DNA of 64,000 bases from a bacterium (GTDB lineage: Bacteria > UBA8248), in NCBI GenBank assembly GCA_965221165.1, contig CBDCRP010000003.1:1280001-1344000 (forward strand), written 5' to 3'. The position numbers were made by a program, and so were the translations under genes. The notes under the pieces are model-generated. The model was given only the letters and a program-made list of their open reading frames with translations, was not told the DNA's origin and made no database searches. This document shows, piece after piece, positions 35,941 to 44,003 of the stretch (positions are counted from its first letter, which is position 1; every line of letters starts with the position of its first letter).

Positions 35941-37320
35941 TCAGTTCCCATCCAGCTTGCGGTAAATGGTGCGCGTGGCGATTCCCAGAAGACGGGCGGC
36001 GGCGCTTTTGTCACCACCCGTGTGGCGGAGGGTCTCCAGGATCACCCGGCGCTCAACCTCCGCGAGCGGGGTGCCGATCTCGAGGTTGATGAGCGGCAAG
36101 TCCGACGCCATCGGCTGTTCCTGGCTCGAGCGCTCGCCCCGGGCGACTTGCGCAGGCAAATCATCCACCGAAAGAATTTCTCCCCGGCTCAACACCACGG
36201 CGCGCTCCACCATATTTTCGAGTTCCCGCACATTTCCCGGCCAATGGTAGTTCGACATCGCATCGAGCGCCTCGCGTGAAAACGCGAGAGCGGGGCGGTT
36301 GTTCTTCGCGGCGAAACGCTGAAGGAAATGCTCGGCGAGAAAGGGAATGTCGCTGCGCCGATCCCGCAGAGAGGGCAGGTGGATGGTGATCACGTTCAGG
36401 CGATAGTAGAGGTCGTCGCGAAACCTCTTCTCGGCCACGGCGGTTTGCAAGTCCGCGTTGGTGGAAGCCACGATCCGCGCGTCCACCTTGAGGGTTTCCG
36501 TCCCGCCGACGCGCTCGAATTCGCCCTCCTGCAAGACGCGAAGAATCTTCGGCTGAAGAACGGGGGGCATATCCCCGATTTCATCGAGAAACAGCGTACC
36601 CTCGTCCGCGAGCTTGAAGCGGCCTTCCTTCCGGCCCACGGCGCCCGTAAACGCCCCGCGCTCGTAGCCGAAGAGTTCGCTCTCGAGGAGGTTCTCCGGC
36701 AGCGCCGCGCAGTTCACCTTCACCATCGCCTTGCCCGCTCTATCGCTCGCCTCGTGCAGGGCGTTCGCCACCAGTTCCTTGCCCGTCCCGCTCTCGCCCA
36801 GAATCAGGACCGTGGCCGCGGTGGGCGCGACCTGGAGAACCATCTCCTTCACCCGGCGAATCGAGGGGTGGTTGCCCATCATGCCCGAAGTGTCTCTCAG
36901 GCTCTGAAGCTGCGCCCGCAAATCCGCGTTCTCGCGCAGGAGCGCCTGTTTTTCGAGCGCCTTGTCTATCGCTTTGAGAACAACCACGCGCTCCAGCGGC
37001 TTGGTCAAAAAATCATAAGCCCCCTCGCGCATCGCCTCGACGGCCGACTCGATGCTCCCGGCGCCGGAAATCAGAATCACTTCCGTATCCGGGCTGATGC
37101 GCTTGACCTCCTTGAGCAACCCGATGCCGTCCATCCCGGGCATTCTGAGATCGGTGATCAGCAGATTCACGGGCTCGGCGACGAACATCTCGGCGGCGGT
37201 TTCCGCGTCATGCGCCATGGCGACGTCGAACCCCTCCTTGGCGATCATCTTCTGGAGGGCTTCGCGGCTGCCTCGCTTGTCGTCCACCACCATCACGCGC
37301 GCGCCGGCGTGGCCGCTCAT
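35941..37320 (-). CDS. Sigma54-dependent response regulator (NtrC family)
   Basis: Receiver domain, GESGTGKE, GAFTGA, WPGNVREL and a Fis-type HTH. Confidence 0.95.
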   Translation of the reverse strand: MSGHAGARVMVVDDKRGSREALQKMIAKEGFDVAMAHDAETAAEMFVAEPVNLLITDLRMPGMDGIGLLKEVKRISPDTEVILISGAGSIESAVEAMREGAYDFLTKPLERVVVLKAIDKALEKQALLRENADLRAQLQSLRDTSGMMGNHPSIRRVKEMVLQVAPTAATVLILGESGTGKELVANALHEASDRAGKAMVKVNCAALPENLLESELFGYERGAFTGAVGRKEGRFKLADEGTLFLDEIGDMPPVLQPKILRVLQEGEFERVGGTETLKVDARIVASTNADLQTAVAEKRFRDDLYYRLNVITIHLPSLRDRRSDIPFLAEHFLQRFAAKNNRPALAFSREALDAMSNYHWPGNVRELENMVERAVVLSRGEILSVDDLPAQVARGERSSQEQPMASDLPLINLEIGTPLAEVERRVILETLRHTGGDKSAAARLLGIATRTIYRKLDGN

Positions 37321-39524
37321 GCCTTCACCTCCTGCACCACGGGGAGCGGCAGTTCGACGATGAAAGTGGCCCCCGCCCCCTCCTCGCTTTCAAAGCGGAT
37401 GCTTCCCTTGTGCTCGGTGATGATCTGCTGGCTCAGCACGAGTCCGAGGCCCGTTCCATTCACCTTCGTCGTGAAAAACGGCGTGAATAAAGAGGCCTGA
37501 TCCTTGAGGCTGATCCCGGCGCCGCTGTCCGATATCCTGATGGTGAGGTGCTGGTTTTCCAGTTCGGTCCTGACCAGGAGACGACCACCATCGGGCATCG
37601 CGTCGAACCCGTTCAAGATAAGATTCTGAATGGCGACGCGCATTTGCGTTTCATCCAGGACGACGTCGGGCACATCTCTTTCCAGTTCCTTTTCAATCCG
37701 GATTTTTCTGCTCGCCGCCACTTCCGCGTGGAAAATCAGTAAATCCTCGATCATCTCGTTGCAGTCGACCGATGTTCTCTCCGGGCTCGGCATCCGCACG
37801 AATTTGAGATAATCGGCCGTCACCTGGCTGATAATATCCACTTCCGCCCTCACGGATCTGAGCAACGCCCACGCCTCGGAGGTATCCGACTCCTTGAATT
37901 GCGACAACTCATCGCCGAGCAATTCCGCGTTCAGGTTGATGGCCGAGAGCGGGTTGCGTACGGAATGCGCAATCTGGGTGCTCATCTTACCGACGATCGA
38001 GAGCCTGTCGCGTTGCAAGACTTCCTTCTCGAGCGCCTTGCGCCCGGTCACATCCTTCAAATACAAAATCACTTGCAGCGTCGCTCCCGAGGCGTCGAGA
38101 ATCGGGTAGGTGTAGTATTCCATCTCCATCCGGCGCCCATCGTCCCACGAAATCGATTTTTCGAAAAAGCCCGGTTCGCCGGTCGCAAAAGTATCGACGA
38201 TCAGGGATCGCTCGACGAAAGGCTCTGGCACCGCGGTGAGCGGCGATATCTCCCATTGTTGATCCAGCAACTCGGAAACCTCGCGCCCGAAGAGCCTGGC
38301 CATCGAGCGATTGAGCATCCGGATGCGAAAATCCTTGTCCAGAATGCCGATGGCGTCCGTGATGCCGTCGAACAGCGCCTGAAGCCGTCTGTTGCTCTCC
38401 AGCACCTGCTCGGACCAGTGTATCCTGTCCTCGGCCCGTATGCGCCTGCGCTCGCGATCGAGTATCAAAAGGGCGGCCAGAATCAAGGAGATGAACGCGA
38501 AACCCGTCAAGAGCAGACCTTTTCGGAACAAGCGCCCGATCAACCCGACGAACTCCGCAGATGGCGCCGTGAGGGCGAAAGTCCATCTCTCATGCCCCAC
38601 CGGGAAGCTGCTGAAAGCCGTCAGGTATCGCAGGCTTTTCTCTTTTTTCTCGGGCCTCAAGTCCAGGTGCCAATCGAAACCCTTCTCTTCCGTCTTCATG
38701 CGCCCGACCAGTTTTTCCAGTCTCTCATCCCCCAATGCGCGCGCGAGGGTGGACAAATGGATGCCCTCCAGCCGGGGGATGCCCGGAGGAAAGATGATTC
38801 TACCCTCGCCGTCCACGAGCCACGCCCGTCTCCGGCTTCCCGATTGAACGGGTTCGACGAACGCGCGCACCAAATCCGCCATGGAAATGCGCGCGTAGAG
38901 CCATTCGCGCTTTCGCTGCCTCTCTCCTCCTTTGGGCCCATCCTCCTTCGACGCCACGGGCACCGCCACGAACAGGGAGGCGACCCTTCGGGCCTCGTCC
39001 CGAATCACGAGAAGACAGGCGCCTTCCGGCCAGGCGCAGCCCCGTAACGTATCGAGGTATTCCTTCGGAATCGCGGCGCTCGACTCGTGGCCTTCCTGCA
39101 GATACCCCACCTCGCTCACGCGGAACCTTCCGCCCAGCCTTTCGTACAAGCCGCTCATCGCCGCCATTCTTCCCGGATGATGGGGTTCGATCGTGCGCAG
39201 AAAGCCCGCGCTGTAGCGCAAAGACGCCGTGAGCGCCTCCAGGAAAGAAGCAATCCGGTCGCCTGCCTGCTCCACGAGAAGAAGCTGCTGGCGGTTGAAT
39301 CTCTCTGCGATCTCGGCCTTGGCGTCCACGTAGTGCCGATTGGAGAGAAAAATCAATATCCCTATCAAAACGAACGTCCAGGCTATCGTATGATACTGGA
39401 ACTTGCGGTTCACCCGGCGCGATTGCGCGATTCGCGAGCGCGCCGTCCCGTAAGGCCGCGGCAGCCCCCGCTTGCGCCATCTATCGAGAATTCCCCTCAA
39501 CAACCTCGTCCATGCGCTCGACAT
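37317..39524 (-). CDS. Membrane sensor histidine kinase with periplasmic (Cache-like) and PAS domains
   Basis: Two TM segments, H-box AHSVRNPL, N-box, DSGAG, PFFTTK and GTGLGL. Start uncertain. Confidence 0.9.
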   Translation of the reverse strand: MSSAWTRLLRGILDRWRKRGLPRPYGTARSRIAQSRRVNRKFQYHTIAWTFVLIGILIFLSNRHYVDAKAEIAERFNRQQLLLVEQAGDRIASFLEALTASLRYSAGFLRTIEPHHPGRMAAMSGLYERLGGRFRVSEVGYLQEGHESSAAIPKEYLDTLRGCAWPEGACLLVIRDEARRVASLFVAVPVASKEDGPKGGERQRKREWLYARISMADLVRAFVEPVQSGSRRRAWLVDGEGRIIFPPGIPRLEGIHLSTLARALGDERLEKLVGRMKTEEKGFDWHLDLRPEKKEKSLRYLTAFSSFPVGHERWTFALTAPSAEFVGLIGRLFRKGLLLTGFAFISLILAALLILDRERRRIRAEDRIHWSEQVLESNRRLQALFDGITDAIGILDKDFRIRMLNRSMARLFGREVSELLDQQWEISPLTAVPEPFVERSLIVDTFATGEPGFFEKSISWDDGRRMEMEYYTYPILDASGATLQVILYLKDVTGRKALEKEVLQRDRLSIVGKMSTQIAHSVRNPLSAINLNAELLGDELSQFKESDTSEAWALLRSVRAEVDIISQVTADYLKFVRMPSPERTSVDCNEMIEDLLIFHAEVAASRKIRIEKELERDVPDVVLDETQMRVAIQNLILNGFDAMPDGGRLLVRTELENQHLTIRISDSGAGISLKDQASLFTPFFTTKVNGTGLGLVLSQQIITEHKGSIRFESEEGAGATFIVELPLPVVQEVKA

Positions 39525-39602
39525 AAGCATTCCCAGGAAAATCGGCTGGTTTCGACCAGCCTTGTCGCCCAAGGTCCGGGATTCGGGTATGAGGGTCCGA
39601 AA

Positions 39603-39699
39603 ACCACTCCCCCGCCCCGGCGCCACCAGCTTGACAGGGGGGAAATCCCCCCATATCTTGCACAAATTAGCACTCCATGAGCCGGAGTGCCACACCAAA
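39603..39699 (+). repeat. Direct repeat copy 1 (97 bp): duplicate of the hrcA promoter plus CIRCE
   Basis: Nearly identical to 44039-44135; contains TTGACA (39631)-17 nt-TATCTT and a CIRCE. Confidence 0.95.
39667..39693. promoter_or_regulatory. CIRCE operator upstream of the RM cassette
   Basis: TTAGCACTC-CATGAGCCG-GAGTGCCAC, identical to the hrcA copy. Confidence 0.85.
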
Positions 39700-39748
39700 T
39701 CCAGCGCGGAAGACTTGCAACCGTGACCGGCAACCTCAAGAGTACGGG

Positions 39749-41785
39749 ATGGCCACAATGAACAAGATGACAAACGAATCCAGCGAATTTGCACTTTTCT
39801 CCGAGGAGGAGAATCGGGCTCTTGACGAACGCACGTTTATAAAGAATGTAAGAGGCAAGCCAGCGACTTGCGTAAATTGCCTAATTCGCGGTAAGGACGT
39901 GCAACTAAAACCCGAAGAACGCATCCGGCAACTATGGCTGTCCCGCTTAATCGACCAATATGACTATTCCCCCTCACGCATCGCGCTTGAATACTCGATC
40001 ATTTTTGGCCGCGACAGTTCCAAGCGAGCCGACATCGTCGTGTTCGACGCTGACCGTCCCACCGTACCTTACATCATAATCGAAGTGAAACAGGGCAAAC
40101 TGCGCGATGGGAAAGAACAACTTCGCTCCTATGCTCATGCAACCGGCGCGCCGCTGGTTATGTGGAGCAATGGAATTCTAGCCGAAGTCTGGCACCGCAA
40201 GAATCCCAACTACTTCGTTCCCATTCATCATCTCCCACGCGCCAACCAGACGATTGAGGCCATTGTCGATCAGCCTTGGACCATCGAAACCCTTATCTTC
40301 AAGGAGAATGAACGCGAGCGCGAAGGGTCCAAGGCCCGGTCGCTGCGTGATCTGATTGTCGAGATGGAGAACGAAGTTCTCGCGAACGCTGGCGTGGACG
40401 TGTTCGAAGAGGTGTTCAAACTTGTCTTCACCAAACTCTACGACGAGATGTTTCACTACCGGGGCAGACATCCGTTCTTGCGCTTTCGCAACAGCAACAC
40501 GGCAGCACAACTGAAGAGTACGATACAGGAACTTTTCGACGAGGCGAAACAGCAATGGCCCGGTGTGTTCTTGTTCGACGAACGCATCCGCCTTTCCCCT
40601 GATCACTTACAGGTCTGTATCGGCTCACTCGAAGAATGGAAGCTGTTCAACTCCAATCTCGACGTGATCGACGACGCATTCGAGTATCTCGTGAACAAGT
40701 CGTCGAAAGGTGAAAAAGGCCAATACTTCACGCCACGCTGGGTAATCGACATGTGTGTGAAGATGCTCAACCCGCAAGAACATGAGGCGGTAATTGACAC
40801 CGCTTGCGGTTCATCGGGCTTCACCGTGCATACCATGTTCCATGTCTGGCGCAACATCATCGCCGACATGGGATTAAAGGAAAGCCACCTGCTCACGATG
40901 GATGGCAAACCCTCGCGTTGTGAAGACTATGTGCGCGACAAAATGTTCGCAATTGACTTCGATGAAAAGAGCGTTCGCGTCTCGCGCTGTCTGAATCTGA
41001 TTGCGGGCGATGGAGAAACCAACGTCCTGCATCTAAATACGCTCGATTGGCCCAAGTGGGACGAGACCGTGAAGGAAGATGATTGGTTGGATGCCTACGG
41101 CGAAGGCTGGCGGCGGTTGCGTAAACTGCGGGCTAAGACTAAACAAGCGGACTACCGACAGTTCAAGTTCGAAATCCTCATGGCCAATCCGCCCTTCGCA
41201 GGCGACATCAAACAATCCGACATGCTTGCTCCCTATGACTTGGCCCATAAAAAGACAGGTAAGCTGGAACGCGCCGTTGGCCGTGACCTTTTGTTCATCG
41301 AGCGCAACCTCGACTTCCTAAAACCCGGCGGGCGCATGGCGATTGTTTTGCCGCAAGGGCGGTTCAACAACTCGTCCGATCAGCGGGTACGTGAGTTCAT
41401 CATGGAACACTGTCGTATTCTTGCCGTTGTGGGCTTGCACCCAAACACATTCAAACCCCACACTGGCACCAAGACCAGTGTCCTGTTTGTTCAGAAATGG
41501 AACGACAATCCCGCTGCCGGACCACTTTGCCCGAAGGTGGACGATTACAACATATTCTTCGCCACTCAACAGGTAGAAAGCGTCAACAACAGCGGCGAGA
41601 AGGTTTACGTGCGCAACAACGACGGAAACCCGATGCGGGATGCACATGGGCATTTCATTGTCGCTCATGATCTGTTCAATCATGAAGGAAAGACACAAAA
41701 CGGGGTCGCCGAAGCCTTTCGAGAATTCGCTGCCGGGGAGGGCTTAAGTTTTTTTCGCCCCGCCCCTTCGACGGTAGCCAACTAA
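39749..41785 (+). CDS. Restriction-modification enzyme: HsdR_N-type nuclease domain fused to N6-adenine methyltransferase
   Basis: PEERIRQ...RADIVVF...IIEVK nuclease motifs; KGQYFTPR, DTACGSSGF (motif I) and ANPPF (motif IV). Lower GC than flanks. Start uncertain (39749, 39758 or 39767). Confidence 0.9.
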   Translation: MATMNKMTNESSEFALFSEEENRALDERTFIKNVRGKPATCVNCLIRGKDVQLKPEERIRQLWLSRLIDQYDYSPSRIALEYSIIFGRDSSKRADIVVFDADRPTVPYIIIEVKQGKLRDGKEQLRSYAHATGAPLVMWSNGILAEVWHRKNPNYFVPIHHLPRANQTIEAIVDQPWTIETLIFKENEREREGSKARSLRDLIVEMENEVLANAGVDVFEEVFKLVFTKLYDEMFHYRGRHPFLRFRNSNTAAQLKSTIQELFDEAKQQWPGVFLFDERIRLSPDHLQVCIGSLEEWKLFNSNLDVIDDAFEYLVNKSSKGEKGQYFTPRWVIDMCVKMLNPQEHEAVIDTACGSSGFTVHTMFHVWRNIIADMGLKESHLLTMDGKPSRCEDYVRDKMFAIDFDEKSVRVSRCLNLIAGDGETNVLHLNTLDWPKWDETVKEDDWLDAYGEGWRRLRKLRAKTKQADYRQFKFEILMANPPFAGDIKQSDMLAPYDLAHKKTGKLERAVGRDLLFIERNLDFLKPGGRMAIVLPQGRFNNSSDQRVREFIMEHCRILAVVGLHPNTFKPHTGTKTSVLFVQKWNDNPAAGPLCPKVDDYNIFFATQQVESVNNSGEKVYVRNNDGNPMRDAHGHFIVAHDLFNHEGKTQNGVAEAFREFAAGEGLSFFRPAPSTVAN

Positions 41786-41803
41786 GCGAACTGTTGGAGG
41801 GGC
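41749..41803 (+). other. Candidate programmed -1 ribosomal frameshift signal
   Basis: T TTT TTT at 41749-41755 in the RM frame, 6-nt spacer, 14-bp stem 41762-41775/41790-41803. The -1 frame is open into the S ORF. Confidence 0.7.
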
Positions 41804-43212
41804 TAGAAGCCTCAATCTTGTCAATCAACGAATGGCGTGAAGACAACGTCTTTTTTCGGCTCGATAGTGAGTATCAGTCCAAGACTCATGTTGTGGCTAT
41901 CGAGTCGCTCAAACAGTTTGGGGCTGTTCAACTCAAAGATGACCAACCCGAGATCATCCATCCGCATGAAATCAAGCGGGAGTATGTCGAAGAGGATGGG
42001 GTTTGGTTCCTTCGAGCCCAGAATGTTAGGCCACTAAGAATTAGCCCAACGAACAAGGTATTGATTTCAAAGGACGACGCTAACAAGCTTACCAAAAACG
42101 TGATTAAAACTAATGACGTGTTGATAACCAGAACAGGCGCTAACCGCGGAGAGTGTGCAATTTTTGATCGAAAAGAGTGCGCCATTGCCTCTTCACATAC
42201 TTTCATCATCCGTCCACAGAAAATTGATCCGAAATTTCTAACTGTTTTTATGAATTGCGTTTATGGAAAAACTCAAATCGACAAAGGTGTTTATGGTGCG
42301 GCGCAGCCTGAAATTGCGCCTTATTACCTTGGTAATATCTGGATTCCGACTGTCAGCGCCTCTTTTGTCATGCGCATTAAGTCTATATTCGATACCTCAA
42401 CGGCAAATAACACTTTGACCGAGACCAAGCAAAAGGAAGCTGAGGAAACGCTGCTTGCTGCTCTTGGGCTGGCGGATTGGACGCCGCCAGAACCTCTCAG
42501 CTATATCGCCCGCGCCAGTAATGCCTGCACCGCTGGGCGGTTAGATGCACAGTATTTCATGCCTGCCAAAGAACAGGTATGCCAGTCTCTCGCTGCGATG
42601 CCAGGAAGCAGCTTGGGCGAGTGCGTTGATTGCATACGTGAAATGTTCGTACCAAACAGTGCTACTAACACGATGAAATTACGAAATTACGATGTGACCG
42701 ATGCGCTTGTACCCATTCTCAACTCTGAGAAACAGCCCTCTTTCGCCGTCGAGATCGGCAGCAACAAGAAAACTTTCAAAGACGGCGACGTTGTGATCTC
42801 CCGTTTACGAGCCTACCTAAAGGAAATCGCCGTTGTGCGAATCAACGATGAGTTCCCCTCGGTCGGCTCATCGGAGTTCATCGTTCTGCGACTGAAAAAA
42901 AGCAAGTCCGATATCTCGCCGGAAACGCTTATGGTATTCCTTCGTTCAATCCCGGTGCAGACCATTCTGAAGTGGTGCCAAGACGGATCACAACACCCGC
43001 GTTTCAGTGAGGGCGACTTGCTGTCTATTACAGTGCCCGATGCCGTAGTCAGAGTCTCCAAAAAGATCACCAAGAGCATTCAAGAAGGTTTCGCCGCTCG
43101 CCACCAAGCCCGCCAGCTTCTCGAAGAAGCTAAGCGCGCTGTTGAGATCGCCATTGAAAACGGAGAAGCCGCCGCAATGACCTTCCTTGACCAAGCCGTA
43201 GGGGCAAGCTGA
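41794..43212 (+). CDS. Restriction specificity (HsdS-like) subunit with two target-recognition regions
   Basis: RLDSEY and RLDAQYF repeats, DVLITRTGA, GAAQP and GDVVISRLRAYL motifs. TTG start without a clear RBS. Confidence 0.85.
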   Translation: MEGLEASILSINEWREDNVFFRLDSEYQSKTHVVAIESLKQFGAVQLKDDQPEIIHPHEIKREYVEEDGVWFLRAQNVRPLRISPTNKVLISKDDANKLTKNVIKTNDVLITRTGANRGECAIFDRKECAIASSHTFIIRPQKIDPKFLTVFMNCVYGKTQIDKGVYGAAQPEIAPYYLGNIWIPTVSASFVMRIKSIFDTSTANNTLTETKQKEAEETLLAALGLADWTPPEPLSYIARASNACTAGRLDAQYFMPAKEQVCQSLAAMPGSSLGECVDCIREMFVPNSATNTMKLRNYDVTDALVPILNSEKQPSFAVEIGSNKKTFKDGDVVISRLRAYLKEIAVVRINDEFPSVGSSEFIVLRLKKSKSDISPETLMVFLRSIPVQTILKWCQDGSQHPRFSEGDLLSITVPDAVVRVSKKITKSIQEGFAARHQARQLLEEAKRAVEIAIENGEAAAMTFLDQAVGAS

Positions 43213-44003
43213 TGACACTTCCTTCTCATGCAGCAGACTGGATGAGCCGGGCCGAGATCGACTATATCGGTCCTTTCCTCAAAGCTTGGGCCGCGTTCAA
43301 CGCATGGTATCGCCACGACTCGGGACAGGCTCAGGAGCGCGACATGCTGGAGCATGTGAAAAACCGGCCTAACGCGGTGCGGCGGAGCATTCTACCTTTG
43401 TTGGATAAAAACAATGAAACCGCTGATGCGCTGAAACTAAAGCAAGCAGTCTACGACCTTCAACAACGCCTCGACGCCATTCATCTTGAGGTAACACACA
43501 AAGGAGTCAATGAACGTATTTCGCTTCGCACAGTTTGCATCCAATCCCAGCCTTTGCAACAGCGGCAGCATGTCCGCTATAGGAACGAGTTCAAAGCAGA
43601 AAGGATTCAGGGTGGAGCAATCGAGATCACAGTCACTTCTCAACAAACACAGCAAGTACGCTTTAAGCACACACAAGAGCAATATGCTCCCAACGAAGTT
43701 TATGCTCTTCCCAGCTTTACCGAGAGCCTCACGGAAGACCAGCGCAACACACTTATTGGGTTCTATGACAGTTGCAACCCGCGTCCTGTGCGCGACCTCG
43801 TTATGGGAGGCGGGCCAGCATTGTCCATAGGGACCATGCAGTTCCATTGCAGCCCGGAGGATCTATTATCTGGGTTGGTAGAAACTATCTATGCGATGCG
43901 AAATGCATTATTTCACGGTGAAGTGGAACCTGAATCGCAAATCTTAGCCTGCTATGAACCAGCTTACCGGATCGTTATGCAGTTCCTCACCTGCATTCAG
44001 TAA
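43212..44003 (+). CDS. Putative HEPN-domain protein (RNase)
   Basis: N-terminal FLKAWAAFNAWY and C-terminal IYAMRNALFHG (RxxxxH); TGATG overlap with the S gene. Confidence 0.6.
   Translation: MTLPSHAADWMSRAEIDYIGPFLKAWAAFNAWYRHDSGQAQERDMLEHVKNRPNAVRRSILPLLDKNNETADALKLKQAVYDLQQRLDAIHLEVTHKGVNERISLRTVCIQSQPLQQRQHVRYRNEFKAERIQGGAIEITVTSQQTQQVRFKHTQEQYAPNEVYALPSFTESLTEDQRNTLIGFYDSCNPRPVRDLVMGGGPALSIGTMQFHCSPEDLLSGLVETIYAMRNALFHGEVEPESQILACYEPAYRIVMQFLTCIQ

Follow-up and report, generated by a model that had tools for sequence, protein, structure and literature searches.

The subject of this study is the junction between two genes in a 64,000-nucleotide stretch of DNA from a bacterium of the lineage UBA8248 (contig CBDCRP010000003.1 of assembly GCA_965221165.1, positions 1,280,001 to 1,344,000), referred to here as the window. 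The upstream gene encodes a predicted nuclease-methylase of a restriction-modification (RM) system, and the downstream coding region, which lies in the -1 frame relative to the first, encodes a specificity subunit (S). A first-pass annotation, made from the letters alone, had read the 3' end of the RM gene as a programmed -1 frameshift signal made up of a slippery heptamer, an upstream Shine-Dalgarno (SD)-like element and a downstream hairpin, and all of these features were found where that annotation had placed them (Table 1).

Table 1. Features of the RM-S locus, in positions of the window
Feature	Position	Strand	Description
RM gene	39758..41785	+	675 aa from the MNKM start; 0-frame stop TAA at 41783-41785
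RM domains			N-terminal PD-(D/E)xK nuclease HSDR_N_2, residues 79-187 (Pfam, 4.5e-26); N6_Mtase, residues 328-657 (1.7e-31)
SD-like element GGGGAGG	41735..41741	+	7 nt upstream of the heptamer; possible upstream stimulator
Slippery heptamer U_UUU_UUU	41749..41755	+	AG[U UUU UUU] in the RM frame
Spacer	41756..41761	+	6 nt, from heptamer to stem
Hairpin	41762..41803	+	14-bp stem (41762-41775 with 41790-41803) with three G-U pairs; 14-nt apical region
Linker and S coding region, -1 frame	41755..43212	+	Methylase_S (Pfam); two target-recognition domains (TRDs); stop codon ends at 43212
Nominal TTG start of S	41794..41796	+	In the 3' arm of the stem, 8 nt past the RM stop; no upstream SD sequence
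ORF3, third gene of the operon	43212..44003	+	263 aa; 1-nt overlap between its start and the S stop

The RM frame reads GGC TTA AGT TTT TTT CGC, with the run of seven thymines (T7) in phase as U_UUU_UUU, and the RM stop codon sits within the apical region of the hairpin. Nothing interrupts the -1 frame between the T-run (FFSPRPFDGSQLSELLEGLE...) and the S stop, and the first ATG, GTG or TTG that it contains is the TTG at 41794, with none earlier. The minimum free energy (MFE) of the hairpin was -26.7 kcal/mol (z = -3.79), a value equalled by 0 of 200 shuffled sequences. A T7 run alone is not rare, with 15 matches in the window against 10.3 expected; the significance lies in the combination of features and in its conservation at 122 of 139 distinct homologous junctions, not in the T7 itself. 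The cassette pattern occurs once in the genome of origin, where no second copy was found. The two products had been put at about 678 and 1154 aa in the first-pass annotation; counted from the MNKM start they are 675 and about 1151 aa, close to those figures, and all such values depend on the RM start that is chosen. An intrinsic terminator was also considered and was rejected, since the thymines lie ahead of the hairpin and would read as an A-run on the reverse strand. The Rfam search gave no match to a frameshift-element family, the two hits returned being at chance level and far under their gathering scores.

Homologous junctions were sought in 161 sources, comprising 80 genome loci, 80 metagenome loci and the window, and were located by tblastn with the RM C-terminus, the cassette not being presupposed. 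After removal of seven sources without a junction (contig ends) and 15 duplicates, 139 distinct junctions were available. A full cassette was defined by an in-phase TTTTTT[TC], a hairpin of -20 kcal/mol or lower, and a -1 open reading frame (ORF) that ran for 400 codons or more, or else up to the end of the contig. The in-phase TTTTTT[TC] and a strong hairpin were present together at 122 of the 139 junctions, of which 110 belonged to the full cassette class (T7 in 90, T6C in 20) and 12 combined the heptamer and hairpin with a short or damaged S ORF. A half-size S behind the cassette was considered for these 12 and rejected, their short -1 ORFs being accounted for by contig ends, internal stops or nearby indels. 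The other junctions were two in-frame fusions and 15 grouped as an 'other' class.

According to record titles, the family spans at least eight phyla (Pseudomonadota, Acidobacteriota, Verrucomicrobiota, Chloroflexota, Cyanobacteria, Ignavibacteria, Armatimonadota, Actinomycetota and others), and the sources of RM homologues include Escherichia coli, Salmonella, Klebsiella, Pseudomonas aeruginosa, Burkholderia and Rhizobium. The same junction was present in isolate genomes and in three complete E. coli genomes. The best 120 RM homologues listed were 78-100% identical and 613-701 aa long, with none fused, and nearly all of the listed homologues ended in ...LSFF followed by 0-9 more residues.

For position-by-position comparisons, 70 junctions (68 distinct sequences) were aligned without gaps. 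The pattern used to pick them had to match the T-run and, in the 5' arm of the stem, the first 10 nt; L062 was left out, and L046 and L062, which have indels in or near RM, were also omitted from the codon-usage counts. In line with the first-pass annotation, the junctions conserved the T-run with its phase, the -1 relation of the two frames and the 6-nt spacing, in which no gap occurred across the 70 aligned junctions. A tree of 126 RM bodies was built with FastTree, omitting the last 10 codons; the 15 duplicates, the seven sources without a junction, four loci with a broken RM (L014, L046, L062 and L159) and nine RM fragments shorter than 450 aa were left out.

Judged by its codon substitutions, the sequence from the heptamer on codes for protein in the -1 frame and not in the 0 frame. 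In the 110 cassette loci the RM stop lies 0, 1 or 9 codons past the heptamer (36, 32 and 42 loci, respectively), and the 0-frame tail is thus dispensable, since the position of the RM stop varies while the -1 peptide is kept. The linker in the -1 frame has the motif RPFDxxR[LYF]xxLLEGLE, conserved with synonymous codon changes. Within the 70 aligned junctions it has Pro in 70, Phe in 69, Asp or Asn in 70, Arg or Lys in 67 and Leu, Tyr or Phe in 70, followed by LLEGLE. The Arg/Lys codon, which falls in the apical region of the hairpin, was CGC in 42, CGG in 11, CGT in 5, CGA in 2, AGA in 1, AAA in 5 and AAG in 1, and the next codon specified Leu, Tyr or Phe throughout by means of eight different codons. 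Of the codon differences that fall between the heptamer and the TTG, the share that was synonymous was 0.30 in the -1 frame compared with 0.15 and 0.085 in the other two frames, in agreement with the -1 shift proposed in the first-pass annotation.

Start codons were scarce in this region. In 80 of the 110 cassette loci, the -1 frame contained no ATG, GTG or TTG ahead of the linker, counting from the last stop before it. The codon at the nominal start of S was TTG in 56 of the 70 aligned junctions, CTG in 5, TTA in 4, ACG in 2 and TCG, CTA and ATG in 1 each, and ATG, GTG and TTG were all missing from that position in 26 of the 110 cassette loci. The TTG at 41794 is most likely an internal Leu codon.

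Constraint was also found at the RNA level. Stem positions were paired in 93.2% of cases among the 68 distinct sequences, compared with 43-66% when the partner columns were slid by 1-3 positions. The covariation score was 0.238, against a shuffled mean of 0.169, and was reached in 0 of 500 shuffles, a control in which related sequences can beat the shuffles without any structure. The upper pairs of the stem covaried (pair 26-43 was GC in 30 and AU in 17; pair 27-42 was CG in 14, UA in 14, AU in 13 and GC in 6), and the stem drawn in the first-pass annotation was thereby upheld. The median hairpin MFE over the 70 loci was -29.0. Third codon positions were frozen in the stem (Gly as GGG in 69/70, Pro as CCC in 69/70, the Glu/Lys codon always ending in G) and varied just outside it (CTG/CTT/CTA and GAA/GAG/GAT). 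At the slip site, the first Phe codon was TTT in 70/70, compared with 26% (638/2454) of the Phe codons in the rest of these RM genes, and the codon before it ended in T in 70/70. A GGAG, GAGG or AGGA was present within 20 nt upstream in 61 of the 70 loci, at a distance of about 9-13 nt and in most cases with its start at -13 to -11. The site overlaps conserved Lys/Gln-Glu codons, and the Glu codon there was GAG in 86 of 110 loci (78%) compared with 46% elsewhere in the RM genes.

Several exceptions to the common layout were informative. One locus, L020, has no T-run and carries instead CT[G GGA AAG] in phase, followed by a 6-nt spacer and a hairpin of -33 kcal/mol, with the -1 frame running into ...SPFDKVRFAGLLEGLE. 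Each of the two in-frame fusions consists of one ORF without a T-run or hairpin, with 953 codons in L024 (an isolate genome) and 982 in L048. The 0 frame of L048 is colinear, without gaps, with the end of the window RM plus its -1 linker (FD, R-Y and LE-S align). Both proteins consist of RM plus half an S, because both halves of the window S align to their one TRD. No protein of between 854 and 2435 aa carrying the first 60 residues of the -1 product was found among clustered proteins, which is weak evidence.

In 11 of the 15 loci of the 'other' class, an ATG for S was present just before or within the linker. Most of these loci had no hairpin (best MFE -6 to -18), and seven also had no heptamer. 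The ATG precedes the linker in loci such as L121, L124, L128 and L129, and lies exactly at the nominal TTG position in L015 and L097. As several of the ATG-type loci begin S with M-S-P/T-x-F-N..., with the ATG ahead of the linker, the linker appears to belong to the S protein in these loci. An ATG at positions 0 to +42 was present in 11/15 'other' loci compared with 3/110 cassette loci (Fisher p 2.4e-10, not corrected for phylogeny). On the RM tree, the non-cassette state requires 12 changes. Among phylogenetically independent pairs, about 5.9 of 8 linked a weak hairpin to heptamer loss and none showed the reverse (median p 0.03), while about 4.6 of 6 linked gain of an ATG to a weak hairpin and none showed the reverse (median p 0.06).

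Three metagenome loci had mixed features. In L131 and L156, a full cassette (U_UUU_UUC, with hairpins of -32.5 and -24.7 kcal/mol) is accompanied by an ATG that overlaps the RM stop before the linker, and these two may be intermediates between the frameshift and separate-start layouts. L158 has only T4 (AGT TTT CAC TAA) and no recognisable heptamer, yet it keeps a hairpin (-30 kcal/mol) that lies 6 nt downstream; its -1 frame contains an ATG 30 nt upstream.

It is quite probable, on this comparative evidence, that the 3' end of the RM gene carries a conserved dnaX-type cassette for programmed -1 ribosomal frameshifting, from which both RM and an RM-S fusion would be made. Conservation, -1 coding and stem pairing support the frameshift that the first-pass annotation had proposed, the fusion itself being predicted. 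We infer the occurrence of the shift, its efficiency and its stoichiometric role. The hairpin 6 nt downstream would stall ribosomes decoding UUU UUU (41750-41755), possibly helped by the SD-like GGGGAGG, and a fraction of the ribosomes would re-pair both tRNA-Phe one base back on U_UUU_UUU. Non-shifting ribosomes would terminate at the TAA at 41783 and release free RM of about 675 aa, and shifted ribosomes would read UCG (41755) CCC CGC ... through the linker into the two-TRD S, giving RM-S of about 1150 aa. One mRNA would then supply RM and RM-S, assembling as (RM)(RM-S), the equivalent of (RM)2S. Heptamers of the classes H_HH.U_UU.Y and V_VV.A_AA.R have been measured as efficient in E. coli (PMC4066793), and both heptamer types found here (U_UUU_UUY and G_GGA_AAG) fall in those classes.

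A number of observations weigh against the frameshift or reduce the force of the evidence for it. Conservation of the 5' arm in the 70-junction alignment is inflated, because the pattern used to pick the junctions required it, and the unbiased figures are those of the 139-junction classification. Nucleotide conservation is in part driven by the protein, because the two arms of the stem encode conserved peptide segments (PFD and LLEGLE). As the sequences share descent, the values from the shuffle controls and from the Fisher test are not true probabilities, and the phylogenetically corrected tests reached only p values of about 0.03 and 0.06. A separate, ATG-initiated S exists at some loci, so the fusion is not obligatory for the family. 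A TTG, GTG or ATG is present at the nominal start position in 84 of the 110 cassette loci and a TTG directly after the T-run in 22, and because of these counts some independent initiation of S is possible. Lastly, a run of T7 to T9 in most loci, and T7 in the window, would also suit slippage by RNA polymerase.

One rival explanation is that no fusion is made. Translation of S would begin from the TTG (41794) or from some non-canonical codon, ribosomes terminating on RM would melt the masking hairpin (by coupling or reinitiation), and the T-run would be an incidental product of Ser-Phe-Phe. The position of the TTG in the 3' arm, 8 nt past the RM stop, suits this, as do the canonical start codon at the same place in 84 of 110 loci, the ATG exactly there in L015 and L097, and the annotation of two coding sequences (CDS) by the Prokaryotic Genome Annotation Pipeline (PGAP). 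There is also a precedent in EcoKI, where hsdM and hsdS are translationally coupled (PMC3510504). However, the codon at that place is not a canonical start in 26 of the 110 loci (CTG, TTA, ACG, TCG or CTA), and the 13 codons upstream of the TTG evolve as -1 coding sequence, the unpaired apical region included. The distance from the RM stop to the TTG is not conserved either, as the stop lies 0, 1 or 9 codons past the heptamer, and the slip-site TTT is fixed (70/70) against the codon bias of the genes. Loci with an ATG before the linker, such as the four named above, indicate that the linker is part of the S protein, and L048 translates the linker in frame with RM. Separate initiation as the whole explanation is judged unlikely.

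A second rival also yields the fusion, by another route. RNA polymerase would add one U on the T7 (an A7 template), and the resulting U8 mRNA would encode RM-S, a one-U insertion giving a fusion protein identical to that of a -1 ribosomal shift. The T-run lengths noted above are compatible with this, and E. coli genes contain fewer UUUUUUU than expected, whatever the frame, for which transcriptional slippage may be the reason (PMC4066793). Yet 20 of the 110 cassette loci have only T6 followed by C, and L020, which is without any homopolymer, keeps the hairpin and its spacing. Moreover, the conserved structure lies downstream, where it would not yet be transcribed when the polymerase slipped, and the constant 6-nt spacing suits a ribosomal stimulator, as does the enrichment of an SD-like element upstream. 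A ribosomal shift is preferred over transcriptional slippage because of the T6C variants, the G_GGA_AAG replacement, the downstream structure and the fixed spacing. Transcriptional slippage as the main route is considered quite unlikely, and on runs of T7 to T9 it may contribute beside the ribosomal shift.

It is very improbable that the junction is a fused gene mis-assembled at the homopolymer, a decaying gene or a phase-variable switch in which the length of the T-run toggles the fusion, for while homopolymers are indel-prone and three loci from error-prone assemblies (L062, L046 and L126) are broken nearby, the same frame relation was present in 122 of 139 junctions from independent assemblies (including isolates and the three complete E. 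coli), T6 to T9 differed by substitution with the frames unchanged, no junction was in frame through run length (n=139), no linker-bearing protein longer than 854 aa was found among clustered proteins (weak evidence) with the best 120 listed RM homologues all in the size range given above, and Logan contigs from two runs of one sample, which are possibly the source of the window sequence and are blind to rare variants, carried T7 without an indel, the T7 rather than T8 on which the first-pass annotation had depended. The sole in-frame T-run junction was that of L062, which has an extra C beside T7 and an RM that is itself broken by indels.

Binding of RM to S is textbook knowledge. The likely purpose of a frameshift at this site, by analogy with related enzymes, would be to supply RM and RM-S from one mRNA for an (RM)(RM-S) enzyme. 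BsaXI assembles as (RM)2S (PMC11997821). In EcoKI, the C-terminus of M is near the N-terminus of S, and an engineered EcoKI M-S fusion (Roberts et al. 2012) was active once extra free M had been added (PMC3510504). The idea of a set stoichiometry gains indirect support from the (RM)2S form of BsaXI, the need of the EcoKI fusion for free M, and the single TRD of the natural fusions. A half-size S in the only hard-wired fusions fits the same logic, as two copies of such a protein would amount to two RM and one S equivalent. For the family as a whole, the evidence tips somewhat towards a widespread Type IIB-like group that uses programmed -1 frameshifting as an assembly device, the RM:RM-S ratio being set by the RNA signal, with half-size-S relatives hard-wired in frame and ATG relatives without the signal.

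Among the closest parallels is dnaX of E. coli, where an X_XXY_YYZ heptamer, preceded by an SD-like element and followed after about 6 nt by a hairpin, yields two products that share an N-terminal body and enter one complex in a set ratio. The three-part layout is the same at the present locus, with one mRNA and two products. The differences are that dnaX uses A_AAA_AAG as its heptamer and that the shift there gives the shorter of the two products (gamma), whereas here the predicted shift adds an extension of about 485 aa, a DNA-recognition subunit, at U_UUU_UUY. In insertion sequence (IS) elements of the IS3/IS911 type, the -1 shift that gives OrfAB beside OrfA likewise joins two overlapping ORFs into a functional fusion, and the downstream ORF has no efficient start of its own; U_UU.U_UU.C and G_GG.A_AA.G are among the IS-element heptamers (PMC4066793). 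Those are transposases, however, and the present operon is a non-transposase defence operon in which the fusion partner is a specificity subunit.

With BcgI and BsaXI, the locus shares a nuclease-methylase subunit that would work with a two-TRD S. The RM of BsaXI is larger, at 916 aa, and has 'knob' and 'paddle' motifs, compared with 675 aa for the window RM. A Type IIB enzyme would be expected to cut DNA on either side of a bipartite site and to methylate inside that site, and the searches made turned up no characterised member of this exact family. Sixteen Type IIB enzymes have been split into an RM + S group of eight and single-chain RMS fusions, and the term 'frameshift' is absent from the main text of that paper (PMC11997821). 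The EcoKI HsdM-HsdS fusion ('Type IMS') is similar in that the methylase C-terminus is joined to the S N-terminus and works with free M, but it was made by mutagenesis in a system with natural coupling (PMC3510504); here, natural recoding is proposed and the methylase also carries a nuclease.

The identity of the genes was judged from domains and from database matches. In addition to the domains in Table 1, the NPPF motif of an N6-adenine DNA methylase is visible in the RM translation. The closest solved structure by sequence was RM.BsaXI, a Type IIB enzyme (E 1.6e-22, methylase region), and no ORF for an HsdR-like translocase was found adjoining the locus, among the neighbouring ORFs and their Pfam matches. 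PADLOC labels the gene pair as a Type I methyltransferase and specificity subunit. A classical Type I RM system was considered and rejected, with a score for TIGR00497 hsdM of 40.5 bits against a cut-off of 242.75 and no HsdR motor gene found beside the locus. Membership of MADS was rejected likewise: the best NCBIfam matches were to MAD2 (320.9 bits, cut-off 720) and MAD5 (130.7 bits, cut-off 400), both sub-threshold, and MADS is a multi-gene locus whereas a three-gene operon is present here. Because of the RM and S domains, the RM.BsaXI match, the lack of an adjacent HsdR and the sub-threshold MADS and hsdM scores, the locus is assigned on sequence grounds to BcgI/BsaXI-like RM + S restriction-modification systems, with an extra conserved gene.

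An in-frame ATG 27 codons upstream of the MNKM start, at 39677, would give an RM of 702 aa overlapping the end of a divergent histidine-kinase ORF (37317-39794, minus strand). This longer form is probably not used, and is doubtful because most homologues begin at the position equivalent to MNKM, 39758. The extra gene is ORF3, for which no family was found in Pfam, NCBIfam or PADLOC scans and only unnamed clusters were matched in the ESM Atlas. At several other loci, the two in-frame fusions among them, S is likewise followed by an ORF3 homologue, and the E. coli copy is annotated as 'hypothetical protein'. ORF3 is probably a functional part of the RM system. Upstream of the operon, the opposite strand carries genes for a histidine kinase and a sigma-54 activator; downstream, ORF3 is followed by hrcA.

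To our knowledge, few conserved programmed frameshifts are known in bacterial genes outside phages and IS elements, dnaX being the textbook case. In E. coli, PGAP annotates RM and S as two separate CDS without slippage. No account of programmed frameshifting from an RM or methylase gene into an S gene turned up in literature searches. Where the GeneTack survey (PMC3711429) mentions 'restriction' or 'methyltransferase' in its main text, RM-S pairs are not the subject, and the words 'methylase' and 'specificity' are absent. No such case appears in the first 300,000 characters of a recoding review (PMC5009743), nor under a term search of a 2025 preprint (10.1101/2025.10.02.679949), although the family might be listed in the supplementary tables of these three papers or of PMC4066793.

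Should the frameshift be real, it would be a new and unusually widespread case of non-mobile bacterial recoding, in a defence system of clinically and environmentally important bacteria. It would add a third architecture, RM plus RM-S by recoding, to the RM + S and single-chain RMS forms, and would be a natural route to enforce (RM)2S stoichiometry from one transcript. Split and single-chain Type IIB/IIG forms would then be linked by an observable series (cassette, own ATG, in-frame fusion), and the efficiency of the frameshift could tune the balance of methylation and restriction. Thousands of pairs annotated as 'N-6 DNA methylase' and 'restriction endonuclease subunit S', at present two CDS with a doubtful TTG start, would need re-annotation. 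The compact and conserved cassette of U_UUU_UUY plus hairpin would also be useful for mechanistic work on frameshifting.

Some further observations concern the setting and the history of the operon. In L081, the chromosome of E. coli EC2001, the operon lies amid mobile-element remnants (a TraC family gene, a mobilisation protein, a frameshifted recombinase and an antitoxin fragment) and beside two DUF262 genes, a setting that fits horizontal spread inside a defence island. In the metagenome locus L159, T7 is followed directly by a G/C-rich inverted repeat where the spacer and stem would be expected, and the 0 frame has no stop for at least 492 codons. A small element seems to have been inserted at precisely this point. 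Finally, four other contigs of the metagenome sample that gave the Logan contigs match the window only over a 30-35-nt piece at 41782-41817, comprising the 3' arm and the LLEGLE codons, and have three different continuations. It would seem that related systems with different specificity domains coexist in the sample, or that S genes recombine at this conserved block.

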